A stretch of 54,177 bases of DNA, from contig NCHI01000001.1 of NCBI GenBank assembly GCA_002281815.1, positions 1 through 54,177 on the forward strand. Reading direction: 5' to 3'. Below the pieces are notes generated by a model. That model made no database searches and was not told where the DNA came from. It saw nothing but the letters and a program-made list of their open reading frames with translations. The DNA is from Methylotenera sp. 24-45-7 (GTDB lineage: Bacteria > Pseudomonadota > Gammaproteobacteria > Burkholderiales > Methylophilaceae). A program made the translations under genes and the position numbers. Shown piece after piece: positions 27,503-53,540 of the stretch (position 1 is the stretch's first letter; each line of letters begins with the position of its first letter).

Positions 27503-28651
27503 TTATATGTTTTTCCAGCTTGTCACTTTGTAATTTTCCCGTTCATAGTTTTCATTACCGCCGTAAATGATGACGGGACTTAGCGCTTTTTCACCAGCTA
27601 AGCGACACCATTTATTAATGGCAATTGGCCAGTCTGGTGCAAATGTGCTGCCTGATTTGATTTCGATTGCTTGCAAGCCTTGTGCGGTTTCGTAAACAAT
27701 ATCTACTTCGTGGCCGACATTATCACGCCAAAAATACAGGTTATTAGCTTGTCCTTGGTTGTAGCGTTGTTTTACCAGTTCGCTAACAATATAAGTTTCA
27801 AATATGGCGCCACGCATGGCGTGTGTTTCTAGGCTTTGGGGCTCTGTGATGCCAAGTAGCCAAGTCATTAATCCAACATCTAAAAAATAAAGTTTGGGTG
27901 TTTTAACAAGTCGTTTTCCGAAGTTTTCATGATAAGGCATGATGCGTGTCACAAGGTAGCAGGCTTCGAGTACTGTAAGCCATTCGCGTGCCGTAACGGC
28001 TGATATGCCACAATCTGCACCCAGTGAAGCTAGGTTTAGTAACTGCCCTGACCTTGCCGCACACATTTTTACAAAACGTTGAAACTGTACTAGGTCACGT
28101 ACCGCTATAAGTTGTCTGACATCACGTTCTAAATAGGTCGCAACGTAATTTGTATACCAATCATTTGTGCTAATTTCGCGGTCATAAATTGCTGGATAAC
28201 TCCCCTGAAATAGCATTTCAGCTAAAGAGTTAGGAAGTTTGTTGGCTTGTATGAGTTCACTCTCTGAGAGTGGCAGCAATTCTATGCGCCCAACGCGACC
28301 TGCTAATGATTGCGTAATGCTGGAAACAAGTTCTAGTTGGGCAGAGCCAGTAAGGATAAAGTCACCCATCATCTTGCGTTCATCTACTACTTGTTGCATA
28401 TAAGATAGTAACGTTGGACTGCGCTGAACTTCATCTAGAATTGCACCATTTTTGAATCGTTGTAAGAACCGTTTGGGGTCTTGTCGCGCAAACTCTCGCT
28501 CATCCGGATTTTATAATGAAACATATTCCTTAGTTGCAAATACCGATCTTGATAAGGTTGTTTTGCCTGACTGTCGAGGCCCTGTAATGGCAACAACAGG
28601 GAAGCTTTTCGCTAGTCTTAATAGCGTGTCGGTGGCTTGACGAGTTATCAT
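27503..28651 (-). pseudogene. AAA+ ATPase (AAA_14 + DUF4143 type) with an in-frame TAA at codon 47
   Basis: ATG 28651 reads MITRQATDTLLRLAKSFPVVAITGPRQSGKTTLSRSVFATKEYVSL*NPDEREF...ILDEVQR in frame with the 27503-28399 ORF. Stop at 28513-28511. C-terminal EVD...IEIK is nuclease-like. Confidence 0.88.
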
Positions 28652-28801: not shown

Positions 28802-30857
<2,056 letters not shown>

Positions 30858-30987
30858 TTTGGAATATACGCTAAAACGATTATAAAACCAAGTGCTTATC
30901 TGATTTTACAGGGTTGAAAATTGCTAATTATGGCCAAATTTTGTGTGTATCAGCACAGGCCTTGATGCAGGCCTTGATGCTAGCAAG

Positions 30988-31803
30988 CTAAGATATTGAT
31001 TTTGATTTTCTGACAGCAAATTCTCTAGCCAGGTTGGCTTGTTTTTTTAAGCCAAAGTTAACTAGTTTTGGTGCCACACCGTTTAGCCAAGCAAAAAACG
31101 ACTCTGGTTGGCCGATAAACACTTCTTGTTTTTCAGCTTCTAGCGCACTGACCACAATAGCGGCAACTTTGTCTGGTTCGTCTAAATTGCCGCCAGTTTT
31201 GGCCAGCATGGCCAATGTGTTGGCATCATTCATCGGCGTATTGACGGTGCGTGGTGCAACATAAGTGACCCCAATACGCGTATCTATCAACTCGCGGCGC
31301 AAGGCCTGTGAGAAACCATGAACGGCAAATTTGCTGGCGCAATAAGTTGCGTAATAGGGGAATCCTAAAGAGCCCAAAATAGAACCCACCATCACATAGT
31401 GCCCCTGATTAGCCGCTTTAAATTGCGGCAAGGCCGCCTGCGTGAGTTGAATCAGTGCCGTGACATTGGTTTGTATGGTTTGCTCAATCTGTTGCGGCGT
31501 TTGGTCTTCGAGCCGGATAAAGTCTAGTATGCCGGCGTTGTTAATTAATACATCAATGCTACCCAGCTTTTTGTTGGTTTCTGCAATGACTTGTTGCGCG
31601 ATATTCGGCTGCGAAAAGTCTGCTACTACAACCACTGCATTCCCGCCCTTGCTGATGATTTCGTCGGCCAATGCCTGAAGCTTGTTTGCATCACGACCCG
31701 CCAGTGCCAAATTGGCACCTTTGCGTGCCAGCATCAAAGCCAAGTGTTTGCCTATGCCGCCAGTAGCGCCAGTGAGTAAAATATGTTTGTTTTTGAGCTG
31801 CAT
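30988..31803 (-). CDS. Short-chain dehydrogenase/reductase
   Basis: TGATGGIG, NNAG, catalytic S and YCASK. Confidence 0.92.
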   Translation of the reverse strand: MQLKNKHILLTGATGGIGKHLALMLARKGANLALAGRDANKLQALADEIISKGGNAVVVVADFSQPNIAQQVIAETNKKLGSIDVLINNAGILDFIRLEDQTPQQIEQTIQTNVTALIQLTQAALPQFKAANQGHYVMVGSILGSLGFPYYATYCASKFAVHGFSQALRRELIDTRIGVTYVAPRTVNTPMNDANTLAMLAKTGGNLDEPDKVAAIVVSALEAEKQEVFIGQPESFFAWLNGVAPKLVNFGLKKQANLAREFAVRKSKSIS

Positions 31804-31816
31804 AAAAACCTATCTT

Positions 31817-32491
31817 TTAGTGCATATATTGAGCTTCTATTGTACGGAAAATATCGCCATATAATTTATAAAATATTTTTGCACTATGAATCAGGCAGGC
31901 TTGGTCGTCTGCATTGCTGATTTGATTGACCAGACTTTCATAAAACGACACGTGACTGATATCGAGCGAGCCATGTGACAGTAAATAGCTAAAGGCTTTT
32001 TTCGGCAGGTTCAGGCTGTGCATCATGGTTTCACCGGCCTGTGTTGCTACGGCAGTGCTGGTGCCTTCAAGCACTAATACCATACCGAAAAATCCAATTG
32101 GATTTACGCGCTGTATCATGTCGTAAGCATAAGCCACCATCACTTCAGTGGCTAGACTAGCACTGCTGTTCAGCGTTTTGCTGGCTCGTACCGCTTCTTT
32201 GTCTGCGCCACAAGCTTCAATATCATTGAGCACCCATTCCTGATGTCCCATTTCTTCTTCGATGTATTCACCGATTGCGGTGCGCAGCCATTCGTAGTGA
32301 CCCGGCAAGCGACTACCGCATGCCATTAATAATGGCGTGGTGTGTTTCACATGATGGTAAGCCTGCGTTAAAAAACCAATATAAGTTTGCAGCGAAATAT
32401 TGCCTGCTGCGCCCTGCTGAATGAGCGGCAGCGCCATTAATTCATTACGCTCTTTTTCAGTTTCTTTTAACAATGTTTCATAAAAAGTCAT
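31817..32491 (-). CDS. Heme-oxygenase-like diiron oxidase/oxygenase (HDO; TenA/PqqC/CADD-like fold)
   Basis: All-helical sequence with EEEMGH, VLEG and H..LD..H candidate diiron ligands. ATGA overlap with the upstream gene. Confidence 0.8.
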   Translation of the reverse strand: MTFYETLLKETEKERNELMALPLIQQGAAGNISLQTYIGFLTQAYHHVKHTTPLLMACGSRLPGHYEWLRTAIGEYIEEEMGHQEWVLNDIEACGADKEAVRASKTLNSSASLATEVMVAYAYDMIQRVNPIGFFGMVLVLEGTSTAVATQAGETMMHSLNLPKKAFSYLLSHGSLDISHVSFYESLVNQISNADDQACLIHSAKIFYKLYGDIFRTIEAQYMH

Positions 32492-33999
32492 GCTGATTTT
32501 TCCTCATATAGTGCGTTGATCTTGTGTTGGTAATGTTGCCAAATGACGTCACGGCGGTTTCTGCCGTTGGCGGTGAGTTGTTGATTTTGGGTGTTGAAAG
32601 GTGTATCTGCACGAACCCAGCGCGCGATTCTGGCGTAGTCTGGCAGCTTGGTATTTAAGCTTTGCACTGCGGCCTCAATCAGCGTATCGCTGGCATTGGC
32701 TCTAGGTACAATGACTGCTACATTCCATGGTTTTGCTTCGCCAAATAAAGCGGCTTGTGCAATAAACGATGATATTTTCAGTTCACGCTCCACCCACTCT
32801 GGCGAAACGTTGCGCCCGAATGAGGTGATAAAAATATTTTTTTTGCGGCCGCTAATCACCAAATAACCGTTTTTATCAAAGTGGCCAATGTCGCCGGTAT
32901 ACACGCAGTTTTCTTGCATCTGGGTTTGACCCACATAGCCTAGATAAGCATTACCGTGAATCACAATTTCGTTTTCAGCGGTAAAGCCCACTTCAATATG
33001 CGGTAACGGTTTGCCTACCGTTCCCGGCTGGTTGTGCCCGGCAAAATTAAGCGCAACCACCGAAGCACATTCTGATAAGCCGTAACCTTCAAAGACTGGT
33101 AAGCCAAGTTGCTGCGCACGTTGCAGTAACACTGGTGATACCGAGGCGCCGCCCACCGCTAAAAAGCGCAAAGCTTGCGGTACTGATTCACCTGCTTCTA
33201 AACACAGTACCAATGCGTGCAGCAGCTCCGGCGTGAAAATTGCTGTGTTGGCTTGCGTGGTGTGCAGCGTGTTTAGCAGTTGCCTAATGTTGAGCCCGCT
33301 GGCGCCAGTTAAGCCTATTTGCGCGTTCGGCAGCAATACGCAGCTGGCGCCGACAAGCAGCGTGGCATATACCCCCGCCACATTTTCTAAAAGCGTGGCT
33401 AAGGGCAACACGCTTAAATGCATATGGTTATTTTTAAGCGCAGTTGCTTGGGCAATAGATTTGGCAACGTTGAGCATATTGTCATTGCTGAGACACACGC
33501 CTTTCGGGCTGCCGGTTGTGCCTGAGGTATAGGTGATTTTTGCAGTGTTGGCTGGTAAGGCTACAGACTTGATATCGCGCAGTGTAAATTGCGTAAGCAT
33601 TTTTCCAGCCACGGTAAATTCGCTGCGGCTTGCAATTTGGTCAGCAAGTAGTGGCGCGAATAGCTGCGGCTGATCGGTCACCAGTACGCTTACCCCGGCA
33701 TCATGCATAGCATGCAGCCATTGTGCAGGTGAAAAAAACAAGGGTAGCGGCACCAGCGGCATGTTGCAACGCATGGCCGCCAAATCCAAAATCATCCAGG
33801 CGGGACTGTTTTCAACAGCCAGTGCTAATGTGGGTGCTGAATTTTTATTGAGTGCGACCCAAGCTGCAACTTGCGCATCGATTGCGGTGTTTAACTCCGC
33901 ATAACTCAGTGTCAGGTCTGCGCCACGCAAAGCAACAAGATTAGGTGCGTGCTGTTTAATCGCCTGTAACAGCAGGTTGTTGCCTAGCTCGGTAGTCAA
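32488..33999 (-). CDS. AMP-binding (ANL superfamily) enzyme, acyl-CoA ligase-like
   Basis: ITYTSGTTGSPKG, EGYGLSE, TGD and GRKKN. The A10 region reads LTANGRNRR. Confidence 0.9.
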   Translation of the reverse strand: MTTELGNNLLLQAIKQHAPNLVALRGADLTLSYAELNTAIDAQVAAWVALNKNSAPTLALAVENSPAWMILDLAAMRCNMPLVPLPLFFSPAQWLHAMHDAGVSVLVTDQPQLFAPLLADQIASRSEFTVAGKMLTQFTLRDIKSVALPANTAKITYTSGTTGSPKGVCLSNDNMLNVAKSIAQATALKNNHMHLSVLPLATLLENVAGVYATLLVGASCVLLPNAQIGLTGASGLNIRQLLNTLHTTQANTAIFTPELLHALVLCLEAGESVPQALRFLAVGGASVSPVLLQRAQQLGLPVFEGYGLSECASVVALNFAGHNQPGTVGKPLPHIEVGFTAENEIVIHGNAYLGYVGQTQMQENCVYTGDIGHFDKNGYLVISGRKKNIFITSFGRNVSPEWVERELKISSFIAQAALFGEAKPWNVAVIVPRANASDTLIEAAVQSLNTKLPDYARIARWVRADTPFNTQNQQLTANGRNRRDVIWQHYQHKINALYEEKSA

Positions 34000-34706
34000 A
34001 CTGTCGTCACTCCACGAATCGCCACCACTTGTGGCAGATGATGGTAATAACTTCCCCAGCTAGCGCGCTCAATGGGGTCTAGACGCACCGGATCTGCCGC
34101 TTGTAGAGCATAAACATCGCGCCCACCTTTGATTAAGCCATTTTGTAAGCTGTGGTGCGCCGTGGCCACACCCCATTTTATGCCTAAATCTAAACTATGC
34201 TGAATGACATGTGCGATTAACACGCCAGCATTGCGTGGGTTAGATACGGCCAAATTGCCTATTTCAGTAATTTGGTCACGCGTGATGGGTATACCAAAGC
34301 GATTGGACAGCATGGTTTCAATCGGCGCATCTAAATATTGCTCTAAAAACAGCGCTGACTCGCTGGCTTTGCGCAAACCAAAAGCCGCTACCAACTCACC
34401 ATTTTCATCGCGTAATGCAATCAAGTCCGGCATGAAGTGCTGCACATTGGCGCCATAAGTTTTGGCAAACACATCATGAATGAATTGTTCAATTTCGCGA
34501 CGGTCTGCCGCTTGTGCATTAGAAGTCGTTACCATAATATTTTCTGCGCGCTGCCTTTTTGAAACTGCGAGCGGTCTAGTTTTATAAGCGGCTTCAGCAT
34601 TGAAAACGGCAGGGCTGTTGCCTGCGGCCACAAAAGCCGCGTTTAAGTATGTTGAGCCTAAATATGGCGACTGTAAATATGTTGGGTTTTGCATGGTGTA
34701 TTCCAC
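33996..34706 (-). CDS. 'Thermostable hemolysin' family protein (Vibrio delta-VPH-like; probably a GNAT-like enzyme)
   Basis: FLEQYLD.PIE, EIGNLA and WGSYY motifs; no signal peptide. 4-nt overlap with the AMP-binding gene. Confidence 0.8.
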   Translation of the reverse strand: MEYTMQNPTYLQSPYLGSTYLNAAFVAAGNSPAVFNAEAAYKTRPLAVSKRQRAENIMVTTSNAQAADRREIEQFIHDVFAKTYGANVQHFMPDLIALRDENGELVAAFGLRKASESALFLEQYLDAPIETMLSNRFGIPITRDQITEIGNLAVSNPRNAGVLIAHVIQHSLDLGIKWGVATAHHSLQNGLIKGGRDVYALQAADPVRLDPIERASWGSYYHHLPQVVAIRGVTTV

Positions 34707-34729
34707 TGTTAAAACAATGATTACATCTG

Positions 34730-34746
34730 TGCAAGTAGCATGCCTA
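34730..34746 (-). promoter_or_regulatory. sigma54 (-24/-12) promoter for the hemolysin-AMP-HDO-SDR operon
   Basis: Minus strand TAGGCATGCTACTTGCA = GG-N10-GC, about 25-35 nt before the candidate starts. Confidence 0.75.
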
Positions 34747-34798
34747 CTGTAGTTAAAACGTCGCCAGTATGAATGTCGAATTCTGAAAAATATTTAAA

Positions 34799-34811
34799 AA
34801 TCAATAGCTTA
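34799..34811. promoter_or_regulatory. IHF binding site
   Basis: AATCAATAGCTTA matches WATCAANNNNTTR exactly, with an A/T tract upstream. It lies between the promoter and the enhancer-like boxes. Confidence 0.65.
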
Positions 34812-34880
34812 ACAACTTATCTATGCGCCTTTATCGCAAACTTGATAACGCATCTTGTCAGTCAGCTCACATCTAGACCC

Positions 34881-34936
34881 TGCAAAACCTGTATTAATTC
34901 ACTGCTATTTCTGCTTTAAACCCTGCAAATTTTGTA
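34881..34936. promoter_or_regulatory. Three phased enhancer-like boxes (TGCW-N5-TGYW)
   Basis: TGCAAAACCTGTA (34881), TGCTATTTCTGCT (34903) and TGCAAATTTTGTA (34924), spaced 22 and 21 bp. Confidence 0.55.
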
Positions 34937-34990
34937 TGGTGCAAATGTGCTGCCTTACAAAAATCAAAGCTAAAACAAGCGCTTATCTTG

Positions 34991-35007
34991 TTGGCATGCT
35001 GTTTGCC
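34991..35007 (+). promoter_or_regulatory. sigma54 (-24/-12) promoter for the LTA-synthase-family gene
   Basis: TTGGCATGCTGTTTGCC: GG at 34993-94, GC at 35005-06, N10 spacing. Confidence 0.78.
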
Positions 35008-35045
35008 ATGGATAACGCTTAAGTTTAATTAGAAAAGAAAAAACG

Positions 35046-36992
35046 ATGCAAAATACCAAACAAGCCTCAGCGCGCCCTAGTGCTTATTATGTAACGCTAG
35101 CTGGATTAGCTTTGGGGGTGTGGTTAATACTCAGGTTTGTACTTAGCTTGCAAGTGGGTTGGGGGCAAATGCAGTGGTCAGAACTTGCAGGGGTGTTTGC
35201 CGTGGGTTTGTGGCTAGATGTTGCCGCTTTGGCCTATTTGCTGGCACCGGTACTTTTGTGCTCGGCGCTAATACCAGCCAAGCTGGCCAATGCCAGCTGG
35301 TTTAACAAAGCGCGTTGGGTGACACTTTTTATAGCGATGTTTGCACTGGTGTTTGGCGCAGTTTCTGAATTTATCTTTTGGCAGGAATTCAGCACGCGCT
35401 TTAATTTTATTGCGGTTGATTATCTGGTGTATACGCACGAAGTGATCGGCAATATCCGCGAGTCGTATCCAGTGCCTTTTATCGTGTTGGCGATTGCTGT
35501 CCTAGTGACGCTAATTTTGTATTTTGTAAGCTGGTTTGTGCATTTTTCAAACGCTACACCTGCCACCAGCAAACGCAGTCTGTTATTTGCAGCAGCGTTT
35601 TTATTGCCGTTGTTAAGCTACCAATTGGCAAATGTGGACCAAATGCAGTTTAGTAAAAACACCTATGCCAATGAGTTGGCAGGCAATGGTCTGTTTAGTT
35701 TTGCGGCGGCCGCGCGACGCAATGAGCTGGATTACGATGCATTTTATAAAACCCTCCCCCAAGCCCAAGCCGACAAAGTATTGCAGCGGTTAGGTGTGGT
35801 CAGGCGCCCGTCATCTGCACTTCTCAGCGCTGAGCCGCATGCGAGTGCGGCATCTGATTTAGCGCCCTTTAAACGCAGACCCAAAAATGTAGTATTGATT
35901 ATGGTAGAAAGCTTGTCGGCAGATTATTTGGCTAGATATGGCAATCAAGAAAATTTAACTCCGTATCTGGATAAATTAGCAAAACAGAGCTTGGTGTTCG
36001 ACCATGCCTATGCAACCGGTACGCGTACGGTGCGTGGTTTGGATGCGCTTTCAATCGCCATTCCGCCGATTCCTGGCCAAGCGGTGGTGCACAGGCCTGA
36101 TACTGAACATCTTGCAACTTTGGGCGAATTTCTCGAGGCGCAAACCTACAGCACATTTTTTATTTATGGTGGTTACGGTGTTTTTGACAGCATGAACACG
36201 TATTTTAGAGGCAATGATTACAAAGTTGTGGATCGTACCGATTTTGATAAAACTACCATTCAATCTGAAAACGTGTGGGGCGTGGATGATGAAAGCCTGT
36301 TTAATAATTCTTTGCAAATCATCGATGCCAACGTGAAACCAGGCCAACCTTTCTTTGCGCACATCATGACCACCTCTAATCACCGACCTTATACTTTCCC
36401 TGTGGGTAAAATAGATCTACCGCTAGGCCACCGTGAAGGTGCGGTGAAATATACCGATTATGCGATTGGTCAGCTGATTGAGCAGGCGAAAACCAAGCCG
36501 TGGTTTAAGGATACTTTGTTCGTGATAGTGGCAGACCACTGCTCGTCAGCTGCCGGTAAAACCAAATTGCCAGTCGACAAATATCACATTCCATTATTTT
36601 TCTATGCGCCGGATTTACTACCAGCTGGGCATAACTCACGCATGGTGAGCCAGATTGATATTGCGCCAACCTTACTGGATATTTTGGGCGCCAAGGGCAG
36701 CCAGCATTTCTTTGGGCAATCTATTTTTGAAGCTGAGCGCAAGCAACTGCCACAACGTGTATTTATTAGTAATTATCAGGAGTTGGGCTATTACAAAGAC
36801 AATACGCTGATTGTGCTTTCGCCTAAGAAAAAAGCGCAGGCTTATGCGGTAGATGCCGCCAGTTTGCAATCTACACCAACGGCAATGAAGCCTGAAATAT
36901 TAAATGAAGCGATTGCTTACTATCAAACCGCAGCACGCGCTTATAAACAAGGTGATTTAAAAGAACATAAAAATGCCTACTGGCAGCACTGA
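35046..36992 (+). CDS. LTA synthase family (LtaS/OpgB-like) membrane phosphoester transferase/sulfatase
   Basis: Five N-terminal TM helices; NVVLIMVES, catalytic Thr in GTRTVRG, WGV.D, TTSNHRPY and VADH. Confidence 0.88.
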   Translation: MQNTKQASARPSAYYVTLAGLALGVWLILRFVLSLQVGWGQMQWSELAGVFAVGLWLDVAALAYLLAPVLLCSALIPAKLANASWFNKARWVTLFIAMFALVFGAVSEFIFWQEFSTRFNFIAVDYLVYTHEVIGNIRESYPVPFIVLAIAVLVTLILYFVSWFVHFSNATPATSKRSLLFAAAFLLPLLSYQLANVDQMQFSKNTYANELAGNGLFSFAAAARRNELDYDAFYKTLPQAQADKVLQRLGVVRRPSSALLSAEPHASAASDLAPFKRRPKNVVLIMVESLSADYLARYGNQENLTPYLDKLAKQSLVFDHAYATGTRTVRGLDALSIAIPPIPGQAVVHRPDTEHLATLGEFLEAQTYSTFFIYGGYGVFDSMNTYFRGNDYKVVDRTDFDKTTIQSENVWGVDDESLFNNSLQIIDANVKPGQPFFAHIMTTSNHRPYTFPVGKIDLPLGHREGAVKYTDYAIGQLIEQAKTKPWFKDTLFVIVADHCSSAAGKTKLPVDKYHIPLFFYAPDLLPAGHNSRMVSQIDIAPTLLDILGAKGSQHFFGQSIFEAERKQLPQRVFISNYQELGYYKDNTLIVLSPKKKAQAYAVDAASLQSTPTAMKPEILNEAIAYYQTAARAYKQGDLKEHKNAYWQH

Positions 36993-37006
36993 TTAATTGT
37001 TGGTGC

Positions 37007-37507
37007 TCAGGGTTGGCAGTCAAAGTCAGGCTTGCTGGTGCTCACTGTGTTTTGCTCTATCCATAATAGTGGCTTTACCCTGTCATCAAGCTCACAGATG
37101 CTGATGTAGCCGATAGCGCCCTTAGTGGCGCTTACATAACGCAAAACAGCCTCTTCGGATTGCACGCTGTATGGTGGTTTAGTGCCGTGAAAATACAAGC
37201 CGTTCCAATAATCAGCTTGCTCGCTAGGCATGCTACCCAGTATGGTTTTGGAAAAAGCGATACGCAGCGGATGCTCGGCATGCAAGTTCACTGGATGTAT
37301 ACGCACGCCAGTTTGCCAATATTGTTTTTTTCGCCAGAAAATTTGCCCAAGCTCGCGTGCTGCTAGTTGTTGCACCACGGCAAGTTCCGGTTTATTAGAG
37401 ACGATTACTGCCAGCGGTGGCGTTTCTTCTGCATGCGCAGTCAATGTTAGGGCGCATAGCAAGCCTATGCAAAGCACCGTCCATCGGTGTGTGCGTAACT
37501 GAGCCAT
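37007..37507 (-). CDS. Small periplasmic protein, single-domain PBP/phosphate-binding-like
   Basis: Signal peptide ending AHA; VIV.N, L..IF..K...W, F...IL and V..T.GAIGY pattern. 1-nt overlap with the porin gene stop. Confidence 0.7.
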   Translation of the reverse strand: MAQLRTHRWTVLCIGLLCALTLTAHAEETPPLAVIVSNKPELAVVQQLAARELGQIFWRKKQYWQTGVRIHPVNLHAEHPLRIAFSKTILGSMPSEQADYWNGLYFHGTKPPYSVQSEEAVLRYVSATKGAIGYISICELDDRVKPLLWIEQNTVSTSKPDFDCQP

Positions 37508-38574
37508 TAAAACAGCACCGCGAATGAAGCAATGAAACCACGTGGCGTGTCGGCAAAGTCAGCACTGCCACCCACAAATTCCATTTTAAGCAGTTGCGTA
37601 GGCGCAACGCGTTTGGTAACCCCCATTACCCAGCGCTCGCCCGAGACTTCTTGCGGGCGCTGAAACGTTTCTAGTCGTGTCAGCCAATACCAATTATTAC
37701 CCAATGGCGCGGCACTCTGTAAAAAAGCACCGCTACCGCCGTTGCCGCCATTGTTGGTATAGCGCTGAAAGCCTTCACCGCTTAACTCCCAACCGTTGAT
37801 ATGGGTAATGAAATCCAAACCAAGCAAGCGGTAGTCAGGGTTACCCGGCCTATCTTCTGTCATGGTGGCAAGGCTTAAACCTACATTAAAGCGGTTGCCT
37901 AATCTGAATTGTGCACCAGCGACATCTTTGTAAATAATTTCGTTATTGTCGCGCACCTGATCTTTCAGCGCTTCAACATACACCGAGTATTCAAGCGTTT
38001 GCTCACCCGCGCCAAGTTGTAGCGGTGTGGCGCCAAACATCATCAAGCCATTGATGCCATTGGGGAATAAGTAGCTTGTGGCCAAAGGTCGTGTTGCAGT
38101 CCAAACCAAGGGGGGTGCATGCAACAGATTCCAGCGGCCGGCTGGGGTAAGGAAGCGGCCACTGCGAATATTGAGTTTGTCGGAGTGGTTATAGTCGAGA
38201 TAGAGCCGCTCTAAATCTAAATAACTATTTTTGCTGTCGAAACGTTTGTTTTCGTTCCAGCTGATGGGGCGCTCTAGTTCCAGTTCGCCAAAAAATTTGA
38301 AGCGACCATCGTTTTCCCAACTTAACAATAAGCTGATTTCATTTAAGTTGAAATCAGTGCTACCGTTACGCGGTGCAACAACGCTGGCGCTGGAATAGCC
38401 GCCAAGTTTAAAGTTTGAGGCTTCCTCGCTTGGTTCATCTGCATGCGCAATGTTGCATAGCGCTAGCAGCAGGGCTACACTGAACAGATACACCGTAGCC
38501 TTGGCTGTGCATTGATGAACGCAGTTTAGGCGAATGCAAGTATCCTTAACTTTTTGATAGATCATGATGCACAT
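37507..38574 (-). CDS. Putative outer-membrane beta-barrel (porin-like)
   Basis: Signal peptide ending AHA, LERLYLDY and GRFLTP.G motifs, amphipathic strands, C-terminal Phe (FAVLF). Start uncertain. Confidence 0.7.
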   Translation of the reverse strand: MCIMIYQKVKDTCIRLNCVHQCTAKATVYLFSVALLLALCNIAHADEPSEEASNFKLGGYSSASVVAPRNGSTDFNLNEISLLLSWENDGRFKFFGELELERPISWNENKRFDSKNSYLDLERLYLDYNHSDKLNIRSGRFLTPAGRWNLLHAPPLVWTATRPLATSYLFPNGINGLMMFGATPLQLGAGEQTLEYSVYVEALKDQVRDNNEIIYKDVAGAQFRLGNRFNVGLSLATMTEDRPGNPDYRLLGLDFITHINGWELSGEGFQRYTNNGGNGGSGAFLQSAAPLGNNWYWLTRLETFQRPQEVSGERWVMGVTKRVAPTQLLKMEFVGGSADFADTPRGFIASFAVLF

Positions 38575-38623
38575 TTGCTACAAATGATAATGACAGAATT
38601 GTACACGATAGCGCTGCAAGACC

Positions 38624-40330
38624 ATGCCAACTAAAGCATTGTCGGTTAAGCAGATATTGCTGATAGGTTATTTATTAACCGCGCTATTACCGATGCTGGT
38701 AATGACTCTGCTCGCGTTTTATCAGGCACGCACTGTGTTGCGCGACGAAATTTCACATGACATGCAAACTCGCGCTAACGCTGCCTTGAGTGAAGTAGAC
38801 CGTATGATGTTTGAGCGCTTGCAGAATGTGGCGTCTTGGAGTCGTTTGGAAGTCATGAATGAAGCGCGTATTGGCGACATTGATAAGCGCCTTTCGTATT
38901 TTTTGGCAGATCTAAAACAAAGTTACCGTGGTGTTTACCATGCGCTGTATGTGGTGAGTGCGGATAATCGCATTGTTGCTTCTAGTAACCCAGCGCAAAT
39001 TGGCGAGCTAGCCCCCAATATAAAGCCATGGTTGAACATGCAGCTGGCACGCCAGCCGCTTGTGTTGGGTAGCATCAATGCGCAAGGCTTGCCTATTTCC
39101 AGTGAAATATTAGATACAGATAATCATAAAATAGCCACGCTATGGGCAGTATTTGATTGGGCAGAGATTGAGAAAATCTTGAACAACACGCAAAGCCAGG
39201 GTAGCGCCGCTGCATTGTTAGATAGCCAAGGCAAGGCGCTGGCACAAACAGCACAATGGGCGCAGATAAAAGCGCAACATGATGTTTCAGTCACATCTAA
39301 TGGCAATCTGCGCGCGATAGGTGCTGGTTTTAACTGGCAGGTAGAAATTTCACAAACTCGTGCTGTGGTGATGGCGCCTGTGCATCGCATGGGCTATATG
39401 TTTTTGTTGTTACTGGTGGCAACAGCAATACTCGCCACCATACTGGCAGCACCACTATCGCGCTTTATTACCAAGCCGCTAGCTAGGCTCACTGACTATG
39501 CGAATCGTTTCATGCGCTCATCGATGCAAGGCGCCATGCCCAGCCCCGATGGCCCTAGTGAAGTACGTGAAATGACGCATGCTTTTGACAAAATGATGGC
39601 GGATTTGAATTTATCTAAAGAGAACCTGACGCGTGCAGCCAAGCTTGCAGTTGCGGGTGAAATGGCAGCGGCCATGAGCCACGAAATCAGAACGCCACTG
39701 GGCATATTGCGCTCTTCTGCCCAAGTGTTGTCGCGTGAAAAAAACCTCAGTGCCGAAGGCCAAGAAGTCGCTAGTTTTATTACTACCGAGACTGAGCGTC
39801 TGAATAAACTGGTATCAACGCTGGTAGATTCCGCACGCCCGCGGCAGCCAGAATTTGCAATGCAGGATTTAACTGCATTATTAGAAAACGCAGTAGCGAT
39901 GCTGCGCATGCAGGCCAGTAAAAAAGACATTAATTTAGAGTTTATGCTGCATAGTTTAAACACTGACGCCGCAAGCAAGACGGTATTAGTTGAGTGTGAC
40001 GGTGAGCAAATTACGCAAGTGGTGTTGAATTTATTACTGAATGCGATTCAAGTGCTAGAACAAGGCCGCAAGGTGACGGTCTCTTTGTTTGAGCATGCTG
40101 ATACAGTGCTTATTAGCGTGGCAGATAACGGCAGCGGGGTGGATGATGCGCTGAAAGAGCAGATATTTGACCCGTTTTTTACGCAGCGCAAGGGCGGCAT
40201 CGGTTTAGGTCTGGCCGTGTCTAAGCAGATAGTGATGGCGCACTTTGGCGTGCTGACAGTAGAAAAAAATCAAGCGGCTGAAACGGGTGCCGATTTTAGG
40301 GTGAAATTGCCTAAGCGGCAGATTCATTAA
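38624..40330 (+). CDS. Sensor histidine kinase (periplasmic Cache-like sensor, HAMP, HisKA, HATPase)
   Basis: Two TM helices, SHEIRTPL H-box, NLLLNA, DNGSG, FDPFFT and GIGLGL. Confidence 0.93.
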   Translation: MPTKALSVKQILLIGYLLTALLPMLVMTLLAFYQARTVLRDEISHDMQTRANAALSEVDRMMFERLQNVASWSRLEVMNEARIGDIDKRLSYFLADLKQSYRGVYHALYVVSADNRIVASSNPAQIGELAPNIKPWLNMQLARQPLVLGSINAQGLPISSEILDTDNHKIATLWAVFDWAEIEKILNNTQSQGSAAALLDSQGKALAQTAQWAQIKAQHDVSVTSNGNLRAIGAGFNWQVEISQTRAVVMAPVHRMGYMFLLLLVATAILATILAAPLSRFITKPLARLTDYANRFMRSSMQGAMPSPDGPSEVREMTHAFDKMMADLNLSKENLTRAAKLAVAGEMAAAMSHEIRTPLGILRSSAQVLSREKNLSAEGQEVASFITTETERLNKLVSTLVDSARPRQPEFAMQDLTALLENAVAMLRMQASKKDINLEFMLHSLNTDAASKTVLVECDGEQITQVVLNLLLNAIQVLEQGRKVTVSLFEHADTVLISVADNGSGVDDALKEQIFDPFFTQRKGGIGLGLAVSKQIVMAHFGVLTVEKNQAAETGADFRVKLPKRQIH

Positions 40331-40367
40331 TTGAATTTAAAATTATTCATGCGGTTAAATTAACACC

Positions 40368-41756
40368 ATGTCACATACAATAAAAACGATATTAGCGGTT
40401 GATGACGAGCCTAATATGCTGCGTTTGCTAGAAATCAGTTTACGACAAGCCGGCTACAAACCCCTCACCGCTAGAGATGGTCGCGAAGCGCTGGAAATTA
40501 TTCGTAGCCAACATGTAGATTGCGTGGTCACCGATTTACACATGCCTTATATGAGTGGTTTGCAATTGCTCAAAGCGATACGCGGCGAAGCGCTGGACGA
40601 AGCGCAGCATAAGTCTAGTAAAGCACAGTCCAACCCAGATTTGCCGGTGATTATTGTTACCGCACAAGGCGAAGTAAAAACAGCGATTGATGCCATGAAA
40701 AATGGTGCTTCCGACTACATTTTGCGCCCGTTTGATTTAGAAGAGTTAGAGCTAGCCATTAGTCGCGCCTTGTCGTTTGCGCGCTTGGTGGTTGAGAATC
40801 AGTTTTTGCGCGAAGAAAAAACCAGTGATATCGGCATCGTGGGCAACAGCCCGCCCATGCAGCAATTGTTTGATGCGATTCGCCAAGTGGCGCCAGAAAA
40901 AGCCACTGTGCTGATTGCAGGTGAAACCGGCACCGGTAAAGAGCTGGTGGCGCGTGCGATTCATGCGGGTTCGCCACGCAAAGAGGGCTTATTTGTCGCG
41001 GTGAACTGCGCGGCGATTCCACATGAAATGTTGGAGTCTGAGTTATTCGGCCATGAAAAAGGTGCGTTTACCGGCGCCATTAAAGAGCGTGTAGGTAAGT
41101 TTGAGTTGGCCGATGGCGGTACGCTGTTTTTAGATGAAATCACAGAAATGCCCATGCAGTTGCAGGCCAAATTGCTGCGTGCGCTACAAGAAAATGTGAT
41201 TGAGCGCGTGGGTGGCAATCGCCAGATTGATGTTGATATCCGTGTGGTAGCTGCCACTAATCGTGACCCGAAACAAGCCATTGCAGACGGTAAGCTACGT
41301 GAAGACTTATATTATCGCCTCAACGTGTTTCGTTTGGATTTGCCACCGCTACGCATGCGCAAGTCAGACATTGCCAGTCTAGCGCAGCATTTTTTAGCTC
41401 AGCGTCGGGCGGCGATTTCGGTGGATGCGATACAGGCTTTAACCGGATACGATTGGCCGGGCAATGTACGTGAATTAGAAAATGTATTGGAGCGCGCGGC
41501 CATCATCAGTGGCAACCAAACCATATTACCCAAACATCTACCAGCAGAAATGGTGAACCATGTCACGTTGGCTGCGTCTGATAGTGGAGTTGCAACGAAT
41601 ACACTGGCATTGCCACCGGCGCTTGAGGCGTTGGAGCGACGCTTAATCAGTGAAGCGTTGGCGATTACGCAAGGCAACAAAAGTAAGGCAGCCAAGCTGT
41701 TAGAGATAAGCGAGCGCTCACTTTGGTACAAAATTAGCCAGTACGAAATACACTAG
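40368..41756 (+). CDS. sigma54-dependent response regulator (NtrC/AtoC family)
   Basis: REC domain (VDDE, TDLHMP; the usual KPF reads RPF), GETGTGKE, GAFTGA, FLDEI, WPGNVREL and a Fis-type HTH. Confidence 0.95.
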   Translation: MSHTIKTILAVDDEPNMLRLLEISLRQAGYKPLTARDGREALEIIRSQHVDCVVTDLHMPYMSGLQLLKAIRGEALDEAQHKSSKAQSNPDLPVIIVTAQGEVKTAIDAMKNGASDYILRPFDLEELELAISRALSFARLVVENQFLREEKTSDIGIVGNSPPMQQLFDAIRQVAPEKATVLIAGETGTGKELVARAIHAGSPRKEGLFVAVNCAAIPHEMLESELFGHEKGAFTGAIKERVGKFELADGGTLFLDEITEMPMQLQAKLLRALQENVIERVGGNRQIDVDIRVVAATNRDPKQAIADGKLREDLYYRLNVFRLDLPPLRMRKSDIASLAQHFLAQRRAAISVDAIQALTGYDWPGNVRELENVLERAAIISGNQTILPKHLPAEMVNHVTLAASDSGVATNTLALPPALEALERRLISEALAITQGNKSKAAKLLEISERSLWYKISQYEIH

Positions 41757-41844: not shown

Positions 41845-42549
41845 ATGACATTAATGGCAAAAAACCTAGACACCAACAAAACCTCACGTTTTAATAACCC
41901 GCAAGAAATCGCACGCTTTAATATGATTGAGCAGCAAATTCGCACTTGGGAAGTGTTAGACCCAGTAGTGCTGGACGTGTTGGACAGAGTGCCACGTGAA
42001 GACTTTGTTGCCGAGGCACAAAAAGGCCTGGCGTTCGCAGATATCGAATTGCCTATCGGTCATGGTCAAACCATGTTGTCACCCAAGCTTGAAGGCCGCA
42101 TTTTGCAGGCAGTACACGTTAAAAAATCAGACAAAGTGCTGGTGATTGGCACAGGTAGCGGTTATTTAACTGCTTTGCTGGCAACGCTGGTTAAACATGT
42201 AGATGCGGTTGAAATTAATGCAGACTTGTCTGCCATTGCTCAAGCGCGTTTGTCAGAACACAAAATCAACAATGTCACTTTGCATGTGGCTGATGCGGTG
42301 AATGGCTATGCGGTTGCTGCGCCCTATGATGTGATTATCTTCACAGGTGCTTTGGCTTTGCGTCCATTCGCAGCGGAAAAAATGTTGAATGTGGGTGGCT
42401 GCTTGTTTGCTGTGGTAGGTGACATGCCTATCATGCAAGCGACCCTCACACAGCGCCTAAGCGCAGATGCCTTCCGTCAAGAGACCATATTCGAGACGTG
42501 TTTGCCTATGTTGAACAACGCGCCGCAACCTCAAAAATTCGAGTTCTAA
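41845..42549 (+). CDS. pcm: Protein-L-isoaspartate O-methyltransferase family
   Basis: ARFNMIEQQIRTW, VPRE.F, IGTGSGY and APYDVI. Confidence 0.88.
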   Translation: MTLMAKNLDTNKTSRFNNPQEIARFNMIEQQIRTWEVLDPVVLDVLDRVPREDFVAEAQKGLAFADIELPIGHGQTMLSPKLEGRILQAVHVKKSDKVLVIGTGSGYLTALLATLVKHVDAVEINADLSAIAQARLSEHKINNVTLHVADAVNGYAVAAPYDVIIFTGALALRPFAAEKMLNVGGCLFAVVGDMPIMQATLTQRLSADAFRQETIFETCLPMLNNAPQPQKFEF

Positions 42550-44686: not shown

Positions 44687-44702
44687 TGGCATAGATTATG
44701 CA
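44687..44702 (+). promoter_or_regulatory. sigma54 promoter upstream of amt
   Basis: TGGCATAGATTATGCA: GG at 44688-89, GC at 44700-01, N10 spacing. Confidence 0.7.
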
Positions 44703-44746: not shown

Positions 44747-46060
44747 ATGTCTGGGTTGCGCAATTCGGTAGCTTTAATGCTATTCATCGGTTTTTCTTTA
44801 TTTCCTTCCAGCAGCATGGCGCAAGACATTAGCGTTGAAGTCATTAACACGCTGTGGGTGCTGATGGCCGGCGCTTTGGTATTTTTAATGCAGGCTGGTT
44901 TTGCCATGCTAGAGACCGGCATGGTGCGCTCCAAAAACGCGGTCAATGTAATGATGAAAAACTACATTGATTTATGCATAGGTACGCTGCTGTTCTGGCT
45001 GGTGGGCTATGGCCTGATGTTTGGCGACAATCCTAGCGGCTACTTCGGCACTACGCTATTCGGATTATCTTCAGCGCCAGATTGGGATTACACCTTAATC
45101 TTTTTCCAGATTATGTTTGCTGCTACCGCGGCCACCATCGTCAGTGGCGCCATGGCGGAGCGCACTAACTATGTTGCTTATTTAATAGGTACTTGCGGCA
45201 TTACTGCGCTGATTTATCCGATATTTGGCAGTTGGGCTTGGAACGAACATGGCTGGTTAAAGCAAATGGGCTTTATTGACTTTGCAGGCTCCACAGTGGT
45301 GCACTCGGTGGGTGGATGGTGCGCTTTAGCAGCAGTCATTTTGCTCGGGCCGCGTTTGGGACGCTTTAGTGATAAAGGTGTGGCGCGTAGTGTGCCAGGG
45401 CACAATTTGAGCTTTATTTCGATAGGTGGCTTTTTATTATGGTTTGGCTGGTTTGGTTTTAATGGCGGCAGTACCTTGGCGGCCGGTGCCAATATCGGAC
45501 ATATTTTGCTCAACACGCACATGGCGGGTGCAGCGGGTGCCATAGGCGCTATTTTAATTAGCGTGTTAACACGCAAACCGATTTTACTCACCAGCACGGT
45601 CAACGGCAGCATTGCTGGTTTAGTGGCGATTACCGCCGGTTGCGCCAGCATGCAAGTGCCTTATGCGATTTTAACCGGTGCTATTGGCGGTGGGCTGAGT
45701 GTGCTGGGCGTGATGTTACTTGAGAAGTTGCGTCTTGATGACGTGGTAGGCGCGGTATCTGTGCATGGTATTTGCGGCGCTTGGGGTACTTTAGCGGCAG
45801 GCTTATTTTTAACCGGCAATATGTATAACCCGCAGCAAATTATGGTGCAGCTTACTGGCATCGCTGCGGCGTTTGTATGGGTGTTCGGCACCGCATTTAT
45901 CATGTATTTGCTGATTTCGTTGGTGTTTGGATTGCGTGTGAGCAGCATGCACGAGCAACGTGGTTTGGATATTACCGAGCACGGTGAAATCGGCTATCCG
46001 GAATTCGGCCAAGACGCCATCTACAAAAATGAAAACCTGAAAGATTTGAGCAAACTCTAA
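44747..46060 (+). CDS. amt: Ammonium transporter (Amt family)
   Basis: MQAGFAMLE, DFAGSTVVH, WFGWFGFNGGS and DDVVGAVSVHG; both pore histidines present. Confidence 0.95.
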   Translation: MSGLRNSVALMLFIGFSLFPSSSMAQDISVEVINTLWVLMAGALVFLMQAGFAMLETGMVRSKNAVNVMMKNYIDLCIGTLLFWLVGYGLMFGDNPSGYFGTTLFGLSSAPDWDYTLIFFQIMFAATAATIVSGAMAERTNYVAYLIGTCGITALIYPIFGSWAWNEHGWLKQMGFIDFAGSTVVHSVGGWCALAAVILLGPRLGRFSDKGVARSVPGHNLSFISIGGFLLWFGWFGFNGGSTLAAGANIGHILLNTHMAGAAGAIGAILISVLTRKPILLTSTVNGSIAGLVAITAGCASMQVPYAILTGAIGGGLSVLGVMLLEKLRLDDVVGAVSVHGICGAWGTLAAGLFLTGNMYNPQQIMVQLTGIAAAFVWVFGTAFIMYLLISLVFGLRVSSMHEQRGLDITEHGEIGYPEFGQDAIYKNENLKDLSKL

Positions 46061-46737
46061 TGAACGCGCCACTACAAACAAAAATAATGAACAACACTGA
46101 ATTGATTTTAAGACGCCGCGCCATTTATACCGGCATGCGCCCTTATTTTGACGACCAGAAATTACTCGGTGCAATTAACCTTTGGCAGGCAGAATATTCG
46201 CATAAACCGAAATTTGCGTTGAGCGTCTTTATTGCGCGTTGTTGCGATACCCCAGAACTCAAAGACGAGCGCGCCAAAATATTAAAGTCTATTTTTATTG
46301 CTTTGGAGCTAGCGCCAGATGAGCTGCTTTCTGATCCATTTGTAGAACTCAAGTCAGTGAGCAAAGCACTGGCAGCTGGCAGCACATCCGATAGCCCGCA
46401 ACAAACAGTGATGTTTGTGGCATTGCTGAACCAGTTATTTAGCAAGTTTAATAAAGCGGATGAAAAGCAAATACGCTACATTGTTTTAGAGCTATTGGCC
46501 GAGGTAAAAACAGACCGCATGCGCATGATGTACATTCGTGAGTGGTTTGCCAAAAATACGCAAATTCTGGAAGGCCAGTTTGAGTTAGAAGTGCTGCAAA
46601 AACTGGTGAATATTTGCTACATGGCCATGTGTCAGCAGTTGGGGCCAGTGAAGGCCGATCAGTATTTAGCGCAAGCCATCAAAGAAACCGAACCGTTGGC
46701 AAGCGATGCGGGTTTTAAACTACACGATTTACTATAA
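46060..46737 (+). CDS. Hypothetical cytoplasmic helical protein, translationally coupled to amt
   Basis: 225-aa ORF with TAATG overlap on the amt stop; no motif recognised. Confidence 0.75.
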   Translation: MNAPLQTKIMNNTELILRRRAIYTGMRPYFDDQKLLGAINLWQAEYSHKPKFALSVFIARCCDTPELKDERAKILKSIFIALELAPDELLSDPFVELKSVSKALAAGSTSDSPQQTVMFVALLNQLFSKFNKADEKQIRYIVLELLAEVKTDRMRMMYIREWFAKNTQILEGQFELEVLQKLVNICYMAMCQQLGPVKADQYLAQAIKETEPLASDAGFKLHDLL

Positions 46738-46765
46738 ACAAGCCGTCTGATTTAACAAACTTGTC

Positions 46766-52759: not shown

Positions 52760-52761
52760 GT

Positions 52762-52825
52762 GTAGGAGCGATCTTTAGATCGCGAAGCATTAAAAGAAAA
52801 TTCGCGCAATAAATTGCGCTCCTAC
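52762..52825. repeat. GTAG-type REP doublet (REPIN)
   Basis: GTAGGAGCGATCTTTAGATCGCGAA ... TTCGCGCAATAAATTGCGCTCCTAC; each arm is a GTAG tetranucleotide plus a palindrome. Confidence 0.85.
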
Positions 52826-52841
52826 GAAAAAGGAAAACATC

Positions 52842-53540
52842 ATGGCAATCAAAATTGAAAAGAAAATCGTTAGCTACAACTTAGTCAGCGAAGAAGACAA
52901 AGCAAAAGCGGCTGAAGCCAAAACCCAAGAGTCATCAGCCAATGTGATTCAGCTAGGCGAGCCGCTAAGCCGTCCAGACAAACTGGTAGGCAACACCTAC
53001 AAAATCAAAACCCCAGTGACTGAGCACGCGCTTTACATCACCATCAACGATGTGGTGATGAACGAAGGCACGCCGCAAGAGCACCGCCGTCCATTCGAGA
53101 TTTTTATTAACTCCAAAAACATGGAACATTTTCAGTGGATTGTGGCACTCACACGCGTCATGTCTGCCGTGTTCCGCAAAGGTGGCGATGTTACCTTCTT
53201 GGTAGAAGAACTCAAAAGCGTATTTGAACCAAGCGGTGGTTACTTCAAAAAAGGCGGCAAATTCGTGCCTAGCCTAGTGGCTGAAATTGGCGAAGTAGTC
53301 GAGCAACACCTGCAAGAAATCGGCATGCTTAAAAAACCAGGTTTAGATGAACATCAACAAAAACTAGTAGAAGAAAAAAAAGCTGAATACCTAGAAAAAC
53401 ATGCCAAACCGGGTGAAGAAGTCAACGACGAAGGCTATCCAAAAGGCGCGCAGCTATGCAAAAAATGTAATACCAAAGCCAGCATTATTATGGATGGTTG
53501 TTTGACTTGCTTGAATTGTGGTGAGAGTAAGTGTGGTTAA
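52842..53540 (+). CDS. nrdJb: Class II RNR second subunit (TSCPD-like domain plus Cys-rich tail)
   Basis: LYITIND, PFEIF, and C-terminal CKKC...DGCLTCLNCGESKCG. Confidence 0.9.
   Translation: MAIKIEKKIVSYNLVSEEDKAKAAEAKTQESSANVIQLGEPLSRPDKLVGNTYKIKTPVTEHALYITINDVVMNEGTPQEHRRPFEIFINSKNMEHFQWIVALTRVMSAVFRKGGDVTFLVEELKSVFEPSGGYFKKGGKFVPSLVAEIGEVVEQHLQEIGMLKKPGLDEHQQKLVEEKKAEYLEKHAKPGEEVNDEGYPKGAQLCKKCNTKASIIMDGCLTCLNCGESKCG

Follow-up and report, generated by a model that had tools for sequence, protein, structure and literature searches.

A hemolysin-family enzyme cassette and exchangeable envelope genes beside a predicted sigma54 enhancer and sensing module in Methylophilaceae

The stretch of DNA analysed here, referred to as the window, comprises 54,177 nucleotides of contig NCHI01000001.1 (assembly GCA_002281815.1) from Methylotenera sp. 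24-45-7, a member of the Methylophilaceae whose genome is 1.96 Mb in size and 94% complete. Between thiC (28802-30697) and pcm (41845-42549) lie nine open reading frames (ORFs) in four units: an operon for a 'thermostable hemolysin' family protein, an ANL adenylating enzyme, a heme-oxygenase-like dimetal oxidase (HDO) and an SDR oxidoreductase, hereafter the cassette; a divergent gene for an LtaS-like membrane enzyme; a porin gene coupled to that of a small periplasmic protein; and the genes of a histidine kinase and a sigma54 activator (Table 1). A preliminary description of this DNA, made from the sequence alone, had reported this arrangement, and ORF and profile checks recovered all nine genes at the same coordinates, with family assignments that agree with Pfam and NCBIfam results. 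The cassette genes are tightly packed, with 4-nt overlaps at the hemolysin/ANL and ANL/HDO junctions and a gap of 13 nt between HDO and SDR, and the porin and periplasmic protein genes overlap by 1 nt. The hemolysin gene probably starts at ATG 34694 rather than at GTG 34706. As a thiamine pyrophosphate riboswitch ahead of thiC (30757-30860, minus strand) separates thiC from the operon, we regard thiC as a separate unit.

Table 1. Coordinates of the genes and predicted regulatory sites between thiC and pcm.
Feature	Position	Strand	Details
SDR oxidoreductase	30988..31803	-	271 aa; PRK09072 family; TGxxGxG at 11, YxxxK at 154; last gene of the operon here
HDO	31817..32491	-	224 aa; PF14518
ANL adenylating enzyme	32488..33999	-	503 aa; acyl-CoA-ligase type; PF00501 + PF23562
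'Thermostable hemolysin' family protein	33996..34706	-	PF12261; predicted LuxI/FeeM-fold acyltransferase
Sigma54 -24/-12 site, four-gene operon	34731-34745	-	
IHF-consensus match (presumed)	34799-34811	+	Between promoter and enhancer
Enhancer-like palindrome 1	34881-34893		TGCA-N5-TGCA type; common to both promoters; predicted activator binding site
Enhancer-like palindrome 2	34924-34936		43 bp from palindrome 1
Sigma54 -24/-12 site, LtaS-like gene	34992-35006	+	Exact match
LtaS/OpgB-like membrane phospho-transferase	35046..36992	+	648 aa; Sulfatase PF00884; 5 predicted transmembrane segments
Small exported protein	37007..37507	-	166 aa; half-size PstS-like binding-protein fold
Predicted outer-membrane beta-barrel (porin)	37507..38574	-	355 aa; C-terminal Phe
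Histidine kinase	38624..40330	+	Two transmembrane helices around dCache-like periplasmic region; HAMP, HisKA, HATPase; His353
Sigma54 enhancer-binding response regulator	40368..41756	+	Receiver; AAA+ with GAFTGA at residue 232; Fis-type helix-turn-helix (HTH_8)

Sigma54-like matches occur in the window at chance level (42 compared with 37 expected), and we therefore relied on the conservation of promoters among related loci. A sigma54 site was found just upstream of the hemolysin gene in 29 of 33 such loci, the remaining four comprising one weaker match, one locus cut by a contig end and two without a site. Upstream of the sigma54 site, all 29 regions contain paired TGCA-N5-TGCA palindromes, mostly spaced by 41-44 or 31-33 bp, versus a mean of 0.18 and a maximum of 2 in 50 shuffled sets, a motif that was picked out by eye in the very regions on which it was then scored. 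The proposal that both enzyme units carry sigma54 promoters, which the window alone leaves at chance level, is thus backed by conservation. When the whole 1.96-Mb genome was scanned with a matrix trained on hemolysin-side promoters only, two strong joint sigma54-plus-enhancer sites emerged (scores of 57.7 and 57.3), and both are the divergent promoters of this locus, with one palindrome pair serving both and the LtaS-side promoter lying outside the training set. A third joint site (C189:1065, score 30.7) was rejected as it falls inside a 551-aa ORF. Each of 12 further genera, represented by one genome apiece, has a sigma54 site and at least one palindrome (12/12). An exact-match version of the paired-enhancer pattern, which is too strict, found nothing in five genomes, and neither a sigma54 nor an enhancer site is present in G479, a genome with the cassette and no sensor.

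The regulator encoded next to the kinase combines a receiver, a GAFTGA-bearing AAA+ domain and a helix-turn-helix domain, and the genome supplies the -24/-12 sites, the upstream palindromes and a gene for RpoN, the complement expected of a sigma54 activator; against the PEP-CTERM PrsK/PrsR profile TIGR02915 it scores 409.9 bits, below the cut-off of 502.6. Genes for IHF/HU are also present, and the site listed in Table 1 between promoter and enhancer matches what we take to be the IHF consensus. The two palindromes are the predicted binding sites of this local activator. Co-regulation of the four-enzyme operon and the LtaS-like gene appears highly likely, and the shared enhancer makes it very likely that a single local kinase/activator pair drives both promoters, as had been supposed. 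No recurring sigma54 or enhancer site precedes the porin, periplasmic protein or kinase genes in related loci, which led us to discard the idea that these genes are under transcriptional feedback.

In relatives, joint sites precede the cassette or a set of cargo genes encoding LtaS-like proteins, EptA-type sulfatases, PAP2, ArnT-GT2 or a methyltransferase. The slot between the periplasmic protein gene and the hemolysin gene is correspondingly variable, being empty or holding an LtaS-like, EptA, other sulfatase-family, PAP2, methyltransferase or EamA gene. Judged by this comparison of loci, the LtaS-like gene is one of several interchangeable cargo genes, its place being taken by EptA, PAP2 or ArnT in relatives, and the notion of a fixed nine-gene system does not hold. 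The LtaS-like protein of the window itself has the architecture of a lipoteichoic acid synthase, with five hydrophobic segments and motifs at positions 286, 326, 443 and 495; Thr328 falls in the predicted nucleophile motif and is presumably the nucleophile. Its closest solved chain is VP1736 (3LXQ, E 4.2e-67), followed by LtaP and LtaS chains (E 7e-18 to 2e-9), and it scores below the cut-offs of the equivalog NF053595 (70.7 bits versus 970) and of OpgB PRK12363 (74.2 bits versus 572).

The sensor and its cargo are also found where the cassette is missing. Besides the sensor, G491 (99% complete) has retained an EptA-PAP2-EptA unit and G485 (100% complete) an unlinked LtaS-like orthologue with its own sigma54 site and enhancer; neither genome has a hemolysin match, and both retain the porin, periplasmic protein, kinase, activator and enhancer-controlled cargo. 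In a third genome, G008, the cassette is deleted and the sensor intact, and the sigma54 sites have decayed. At L183:13456-14245, a natural deletion has left the start of the hemolysin gene and the end of the SDR gene, with decayed promoters and intact sensor and cargo genes.

We then considered what the cassette may make. The hemolysin-family protein scores 197.6 bits against PF12261 (cut-off 27), contains no signal or hydrophobic segment, and had no usable match among solved structures by sequence search. Its model (predicted local distance difference test (pLDDT) score of 84.5) is most similar to TofI (Z 15.5, root-mean-square deviation 2.7, 154 aligned residues), LasI (Z 14.3), FeeM (Z 14.1, root-mean-square deviation 3.1, 162 aligned residues) and RpaI (Z 13.7), such that LuxI/FeeM-type proteins rank ahead of generic GNATs. 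Its Atlas neighbours include acetyltransferase clusters and one cluster containing 12% FeeM members (score 0.91), and we take PF12261 to be grouped with acetyltransferases by Pfam already. Because none of 54 homologues matches the LuxI autoinducer-synthase profile at E values up to 0.1 (Pfam, NCBIfam) or the FeeM profile, we do not file the protein as a LuxI or FeeM member and consider it at best to work similarly. On the strength of the model, N-acylation by the hemolysin-family protein is predicted.

The remaining enzymes are consistent with activation and oxidation of an acyl substrate. The core motifs of the ANL enzyme are intact and of the acyl-CoA-ligase type, and the C-terminal position at which a catalytic Lys is expected is occupied by Arg (TANGR), as it is in 109 of 130 homologues (Lys in 8, motif unmatched in 13). 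The HDO scores 102.8 bits against PF14518, and its predicted metal ligands (E80, H83, E142, H173, D177 and H180) are invariant in 40 of 40 aligned homologues. It is distant from characterised HDOs: its nearest solved chain is the uncharacterised 3DDE, followed by CADD, a profile search recovered CADD at E 4e-5 and MboA at E 0.002, and its score of 29.1 bits lies below the CADD subfamily cut-off of 200 (TIGR04305). The SDR scores 293.7 bits against PRK09072 (cut-off 238). Single-ORF fusions join hemolysin to ANL in two loci and ANL to HDO in five, which argues that the enzymes belong to one pathway; a search for hemolysins lengthened by fusion gave no match, an absence that is weak evidence. 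In one freshwater metatranscriptome, short contigs of near-identical sequence lie over the genes for hemolysin, SDR and kinase, for which a DNA origin is possible and which give neither level nor strand.

These observations bear on whether the hemolysin-family protein could be a true secreted cytolysin with accessory neighbours, which we consider very improbable. According to the available text of PMC11033176, the Vibrio fluvialis homologue delta-VFH is secreted and cytotoxic, the recombinant protein bound phosphatidylserine and phosphatidic acid and triggered pyroptosis, and haemolysis was abolished in a double mutant; the single deletion, however, barely had an effect, and the words 'operon' and 'acyltransferase' are absent from the main text of that paper. 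Against a cytolysin are the predicted acyltransferase fold of the window protein, its lack of a signal or hydrophobic segment, the fusion to ANL in two loci and the presence of the family in free-living methylotroph and iron-oxidiser lineages.

With respect to the sensing genes, the hemolysin gene was found in 18 of 37 Methylophilaceae genera and the kinase sensor region likewise in 18, with both in 16, neither in 17 and one alone in 2 and 2 (Fisher p 1.7e-6, which is overstated as kin are not independent). Within the genus, the counts were 13 with both, 1 and 3 with one alone and 19 with neither, out of 36. The module of porin, periplasmic binding protein (PBP), kinase and sigma54 activator accompanies the cassette in 16 of the 18 cassette-bearing genera, and the conserved unit consists of eight genes. 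Neither the porin nor the periplasmic protein belongs to a Pfam family. The porin had no usable sequence match among solved structures and has Porin_O_P and outer-membrane protein clusters among its Atlas neighbours (scores 0.96-0.98), and the periplasmic protein matches TIGR02136 at E 1.6e-5 and PstS chains at E 1.5e-6. When the periplasmic protein was modelled with the periplasmic region of the kinase, the complex scored 0.33 compared with 0.00 for the best control, which is weak support: a pass with a score of 0.60 or below was obtained by 18 of 157 solved complexes, and the two of 215 mismatched pairs that passed both fell in that range. Contacts agreed between runs to at least 96%, with a partner pLDDT of at least 89, and on this modelling the periplasmic protein may contact the kinase. 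In other families, pairs of a porin and a small PBP are found ahead of GGDEF-EAL sensors as well, and therefore look like a general sensing accessory. The pairs near the cassette in L076 and L082 were taken as chance, since unrelated genes lie in between.

The preliminary description had raised the possibility of an autoinducer-like loop, in which a diffusible acyl-amide made by the cassette would re-enter through the porin, bind the periplasmic protein and activate the kinase, giving positive feedback in the manner of LuxI and LuxR. Such a loop would account for the N-acyl-homoserine lactone synthases among the top fold matches of the hemolysin-family protein, for the predicted control of the synthase operon by the local activator and for the tight co-occurrence of sensor and cassette in Methylophilaceae; elsewhere, the gene run often continues from the cassette into a gene for a QseC-type kinase. 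Genomes with the sensor alone could be eavesdroppers. The regulators that neighbour the cassette are a sigma54 activator or of OmpR type, with no LuxR-type receptor adjoining. Against the loop, the same cassette is served by two unrelated sensor types, and 34 of 99 loci have neither within the fetched stretch. The loop is further weakened by G485 and G491, in which the intact sensor and its targets persist without a cassette, and by G479, in which the cassette persists without sensor, sigma54 or enhancer site; G008 was not counted against it because its sigma54 sites have decayed as well. Conservation in the kinase is 0.74 at residues 61-110 and about 0.5 (0.49-0.51) at residues 111-256, the distal dCache region, a pattern unlike that anticipated for a pocket that holds a single conserved ligand, and porin/PBP pairs also precede unrelated GGDEF-EAL sensors. 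Collectively, we judge this loop to be unlikely.

Beyond the Methylophilaceae, PF12261 was found in 75 of 401 sampled genomes of the phylum, in a draw that over-represents one class: 43 of the 75 belong to a single class (43 of its 67 genomes) that groups with Zetaproteobacteria-titled records. Gallionella records also carry the cassette. We assembled 99 loci of at least 15 kb, a non-random set picked by hemolysin or HDO match, partly by hand, with duplicates removed. All four enzymes are present in 91 of these, a conserved tetratricopeptide repeat (TPR) gene in 79, an OmpR-type regulator in 46 and a porin in 20. The expectation that the enzymes and the sensing genes co-occur was borne out within the Methylophilaceae and mostly not elsewhere, where the cassette is usually found with an unrelated QseBC-type pair or with none. 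Envelope-modifying genes lie at 14 of 20 sigma54-type loci, 7 of 45 OmpR-type loci and 2 of 34 others. In a quick-search tree of the HDO, the porin/sigma54 versions fall in one 36-row group (support 98) with the exception of one Methylococcaceae locus, and most copies lacking the TPR gene fall in the subgroup that contains the window.

At OmpR-type loci, a CTTAA-N6-CTTAA box that we take to be PmrA/QseB-like lies ahead of the cassette in 28 of 36 cases, compared with a shuffle mean of 0.4, and is absent from all 22 sigma54 loci; the cassette would accordingly be an output of the regulator in these loci also. The QseC-type partner kinases carry acidic and His motifs, with HxYE in 34 of 49. After the QseC-type kinase gene beside the cassette, a cupredoxin gene recurs together with two conserved genes for proteins of about 255 and 235 aa that belong to no Pfam family (L078, L079, L081, L082, L097, L149, L158, L162, L167, L172, L174, L176 and L181), a possible link to copper. 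Further variations include a phospholipid-methyltransferase-family gene inserted within the cassette (L155:8706-9305), methyltransferase and Kdo/WaaP kinase genes inserted likewise (L149:8220-10022), and solo or tandem hemolysin-family genes (L100:7350-8721, L091:11964-12608) in genomes that also hold the full cassette. Two Methylophilaceae genomes of about 1.3 Mb (L211, L180) have the five-gene cassette without an adjacent sensor, with eptA directly after it in L211; retention in such streamlined genomes suggests a useful product.

The TPR gene is the usual fifth gene of the cassette, and was absent from the preliminary account; the window lineage does not have it. Its product has an apparent signal peptide, and the model is most similar to BstC (Z 19.8), Es_TatT (19.3), a second TPAT protein (18.9) and Tp0956 (18.8); a profile search matched BstC at 1.7e-8, and Pfam TAtT is found in 8 of 31 members. 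TatT/BstC-type proteins are periplasmic sterol or fatty-acid binders according to the accessible part of PMC11713862, and on its model the fifth-gene protein is predicted to bind lipid. The preliminary suggestion of an acyl-amide or lipid product probably stands, given the structural matches of the hemolysin-family and fifth-gene proteins. A gene for a small OmpA-like eight-stranded barrel occurs within or right beside the cassette in three lineages (L021-L023, L088, L101, L124 and L129; L116, L117 and L119), next to the TatT-like gene in several, and its product is a candidate outer-membrane partner.

Two further explanations concern the direction and use of this lipid-type chemistry. In one, the stress that induces the envelope genes also induces the cassette, whose product is secreted and is not a signal; it could be a surfactant, an acyl-amide with antimicrobial action or a chelator of metals. 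Zetaproteobacteria and Gallionella are iron oxidisers, and the abundance of the cassette in the class that groups with the former (43/67 genomes), its presence in records of the latter and the acidic and His motifs of the QseC-type partners (HxYE, 34/49) would fit a metal-related product, just as the RND-type efflux and OmpA-like barrel genes that adjoin some copies would fit secretion. Against it, neither exporters nor TonB-dependent receptors adjoin the cassette consistently, and the likeness of the carrier is to proteins that bind lipids and not to those that bind siderophores; we regard this explanation as somewhat less probable still than the signalling loop. In the other, a fatty acid or a hydrophobic toxin enters by way of the TatT-like protein and is activated and neutralised by the ANL enzyme, HDO, SDR and acyltransferase. 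We take PP_2708-2711 of Pseudomonas putida to be this cassette. The available text of PMC5427061 reads PP_2709 and PP_2711 as fatty-acid metabolism genes and reports that PP_2708-2711 rise in stationary phase, that of 10.1101/2025.03.18.643695 describes a PP_2710 deletion made in an isoprenol producer, and that of PMC11713862 reports fatty-acid uptake by some TatT proteins. Uptake and breakdown nevertheless seems a poor explanation, as no TRAP or beta-oxidation genes recur nearby and the cassette is co-regulated with envelope-modifying enzymes. It is also retained in methylotroph and iron-oxidiser lineages, which are not known to live on fatty acids.

Of the readings offered, the branch of the preliminary description that envisaged a regulated envelope-lipid modification fits best. 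We propose that the operon and the LtaS-like gene are joint outputs of the adjacent kinase/activator pair, acting through one enhancer, and that the operon builds an oxidised N-acyl envelope lipid, a reading to which we assign a probability of about 0.5. The gene layout, conserved promoters, conserved enhancer and exchangeable cargo are established at the level of sequence comparison. The cassette reads as an output because the activator sites of two unrelated regulators precede it, because it shares its control with lipid A and envelope enzymes in this family and because sensors persist without it. The enzyme set, together with the usual lipid carrier, would point to an oxidised N-acyl lipid that is moved outward, and a lipid product of the operon is reasonably probable.

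Several points weigh against this proposal. A shared fold by itself gives no function, and with Arg in place of Lys the chemistry of the ANL enzyme may differ. The best profile match to the carrier in the window genome, which is 94% complete, scored 39.9 bits compared with more than 200 for members, and because the gene was not found there the carrier argument is indirect for the window lineage. The enhancer motif was derived from the regions used to score it, and out of sample the paired-site threshold was reached in just 6 of 12 genera. Envelope cargo beside OmpR-type cassettes is near background, as 9 such genes occur in 1.96 Mb. Residues 34-256 of the kinase contain no ExxE metal motif, and a ColS/PmrB-like cue is not supported by its sequence. 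Lastly, the Vibrio fluvialis homologue delta-VFH is reported to be secreted, cytotoxic and lipid-binding (PMC11033176).

We infer the steps of regulation and chemistry to be as follows. An outside or envelope cue would be picked up by the porin and the small periplasmic protein, which likely contacts the kinase, and the phosphorylated activator would bind the two palindromes and fire both promoters. The ANL enzyme would activate a long-chain fatty acid, whose acyl group the 'hemolysin' would hand on to an amine, for example an amino acid. Using O2, the diiron HDO would oxidise the product or a precursor, and the SDR would set the carbonyl/hydroxyl state. In most bacteria, the TatT-like periplasmic protein may carry the lipid outward, the window lineage being without the gene. 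For the LtaS-like enzyme, we envisage transfer of a phospho-head group from a phospholipid to a periplasmic acceptor, comparable to the remodelling of lipid A by the cargo alternatives EptA, PAP2 and ArnT.

Several known systems share features with this locus. EptA, LpxE-type PAP2 and ArnT form a lipid A-remodelling set under ColSR/RaxHR (accessible part of PMC8306577). As in PmrAB, ColRS and RaxHR, a two-component pair lies beside eptA, PAP2 (lpxE-type) and arnT genes, and relatives of the module would control the same enzyme families, as judged from predicted promoter sites. The module differs in its sigma54 activator, its dCache-type kinase without ExxE and its flanking porin and small PBP, and thus has neither the OmpR-type regulator nor the sensor motif of the PmrAB/ColRS type; its regulon further includes a four-enzyme biosynthetic cassette. 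Xanthomonas RaxHR was considered as a pair lying with the cassette and rejected, RaxHR being the ColSR orthologue (PMC8306577). The available text of PMC10469919 lists VP1729 (delta-VPH hemolysin), VP1731 (iron redox enzyme) and VP1735 (QseC-type kinase) of Vibrio parahaemolyticus, and gives predicted interactions only, with no pathway or product. Hemolysin and HDO annotations thus lie beside a kinase there too, as far as adjacency can be read from locus-tag numbers rather than DNA, and VP1736, to which the LtaS-like protein of the window is closer than to any other solved chain, falls in the same VP1729-VP1736 range; control is of the OmpR/QseBC type, in contrast to sigma54 here.

As for the enzymes, FeeM and the CoA-dependent LuxI homologues RpaI, BjaI and MesI share the acyltransferase fold of the hemolysin-family protein (Z 13.0-14.1). 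The Fee pathway combines a ligase, an amide synthase and oxidative tailoring, a logic that the cassette matches; the cassette differs in having no acyl carrier protein or LuxR gene, no FeeM or Autoind_synth profile match, and an HDO for tailoring, the family known for the chemistry of UndA, BesC and SznF. The window HDO shares its fold family and metal-ligand set with characterised members (CADD, UndA, BesC, SznF, AetD and MboA), from which it is distant and whose partner enzymes are unlike those of the cassette. The usual fifth gene has the fold of the BstABC/TatT proteins and, like bstC, lies inside a biosynthetic operon (accessible part of PMC11713862), with the difference that no TRAP or BstA/B partners recur at the cassette and that the window genome was not found to hold the gene. 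No product is assigned to the cassette in the literature searched, most subscription papers and supplements lying outside its coverage.

Outside the nine genes, the window contains other ORFs of note. An AAA_14/DUF4143 ATPase ORF (27503-28399, minus strand), whose AAA match spans only profile positions 83-128, lies in a low-GC stretch (0.40) and may lack part of its start or be a recent acquisition. At 44747-48892 (plus strand), an ammonium transporter gene is coupled to a PAS-PAS-GGDEF-EAL gene and to a 225-aa gene that falls in no Pfam family. A sigma54-like match lies ahead of them (44687-44701), and together they may form an ammonium-sensing cyclic di-GMP unit. At 50594-53540 (plus strand), a ribonucleotide reductase large subunit gene is followed by a separate TSCPD-domain gene, resembling a split class II enzyme.

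We see in this locus an orphan lipid-type pathway of four or five genes, which in Methylophilaceae has been coupled to a sigma54 sensing module whose envelope cargo is exchangeable. More tentatively than the reading above, we suggest that the 'delta thermostable hemolysin' of Vibrio and many other proteobacteria is the acyltransferase step of an undescribed ligase/synthase/diiron oxidase/SDR/TatT-carrier pathway to a new class of oxidised N-acyl lipids, which might belong to the outer membrane and be induced alongside lipid A remodelling, or else act as the ligand of QseC-type sensors. The pathway would have been rewired in Methylophilaceae under a porin/PBP-assisted sigma54 sensor. If so, a reported Vibrio virulence gene would be re-annotated as a biosynthetic acyltransferase, the HDO would perform a new reaction, and a large TatT-like subfamily would gain a ligand. 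The mapped enhancer would offer a direct switch for the pathway by way of a constitutively active activator in a harmless methylotroph, enabling a hunt for the product. More broadly, the locus would illustrate how one output moves between PmrA/QseB-type and sigma54 control, and may serve as a test case for the unexplained gene triads of porin, small PBP and sensor.

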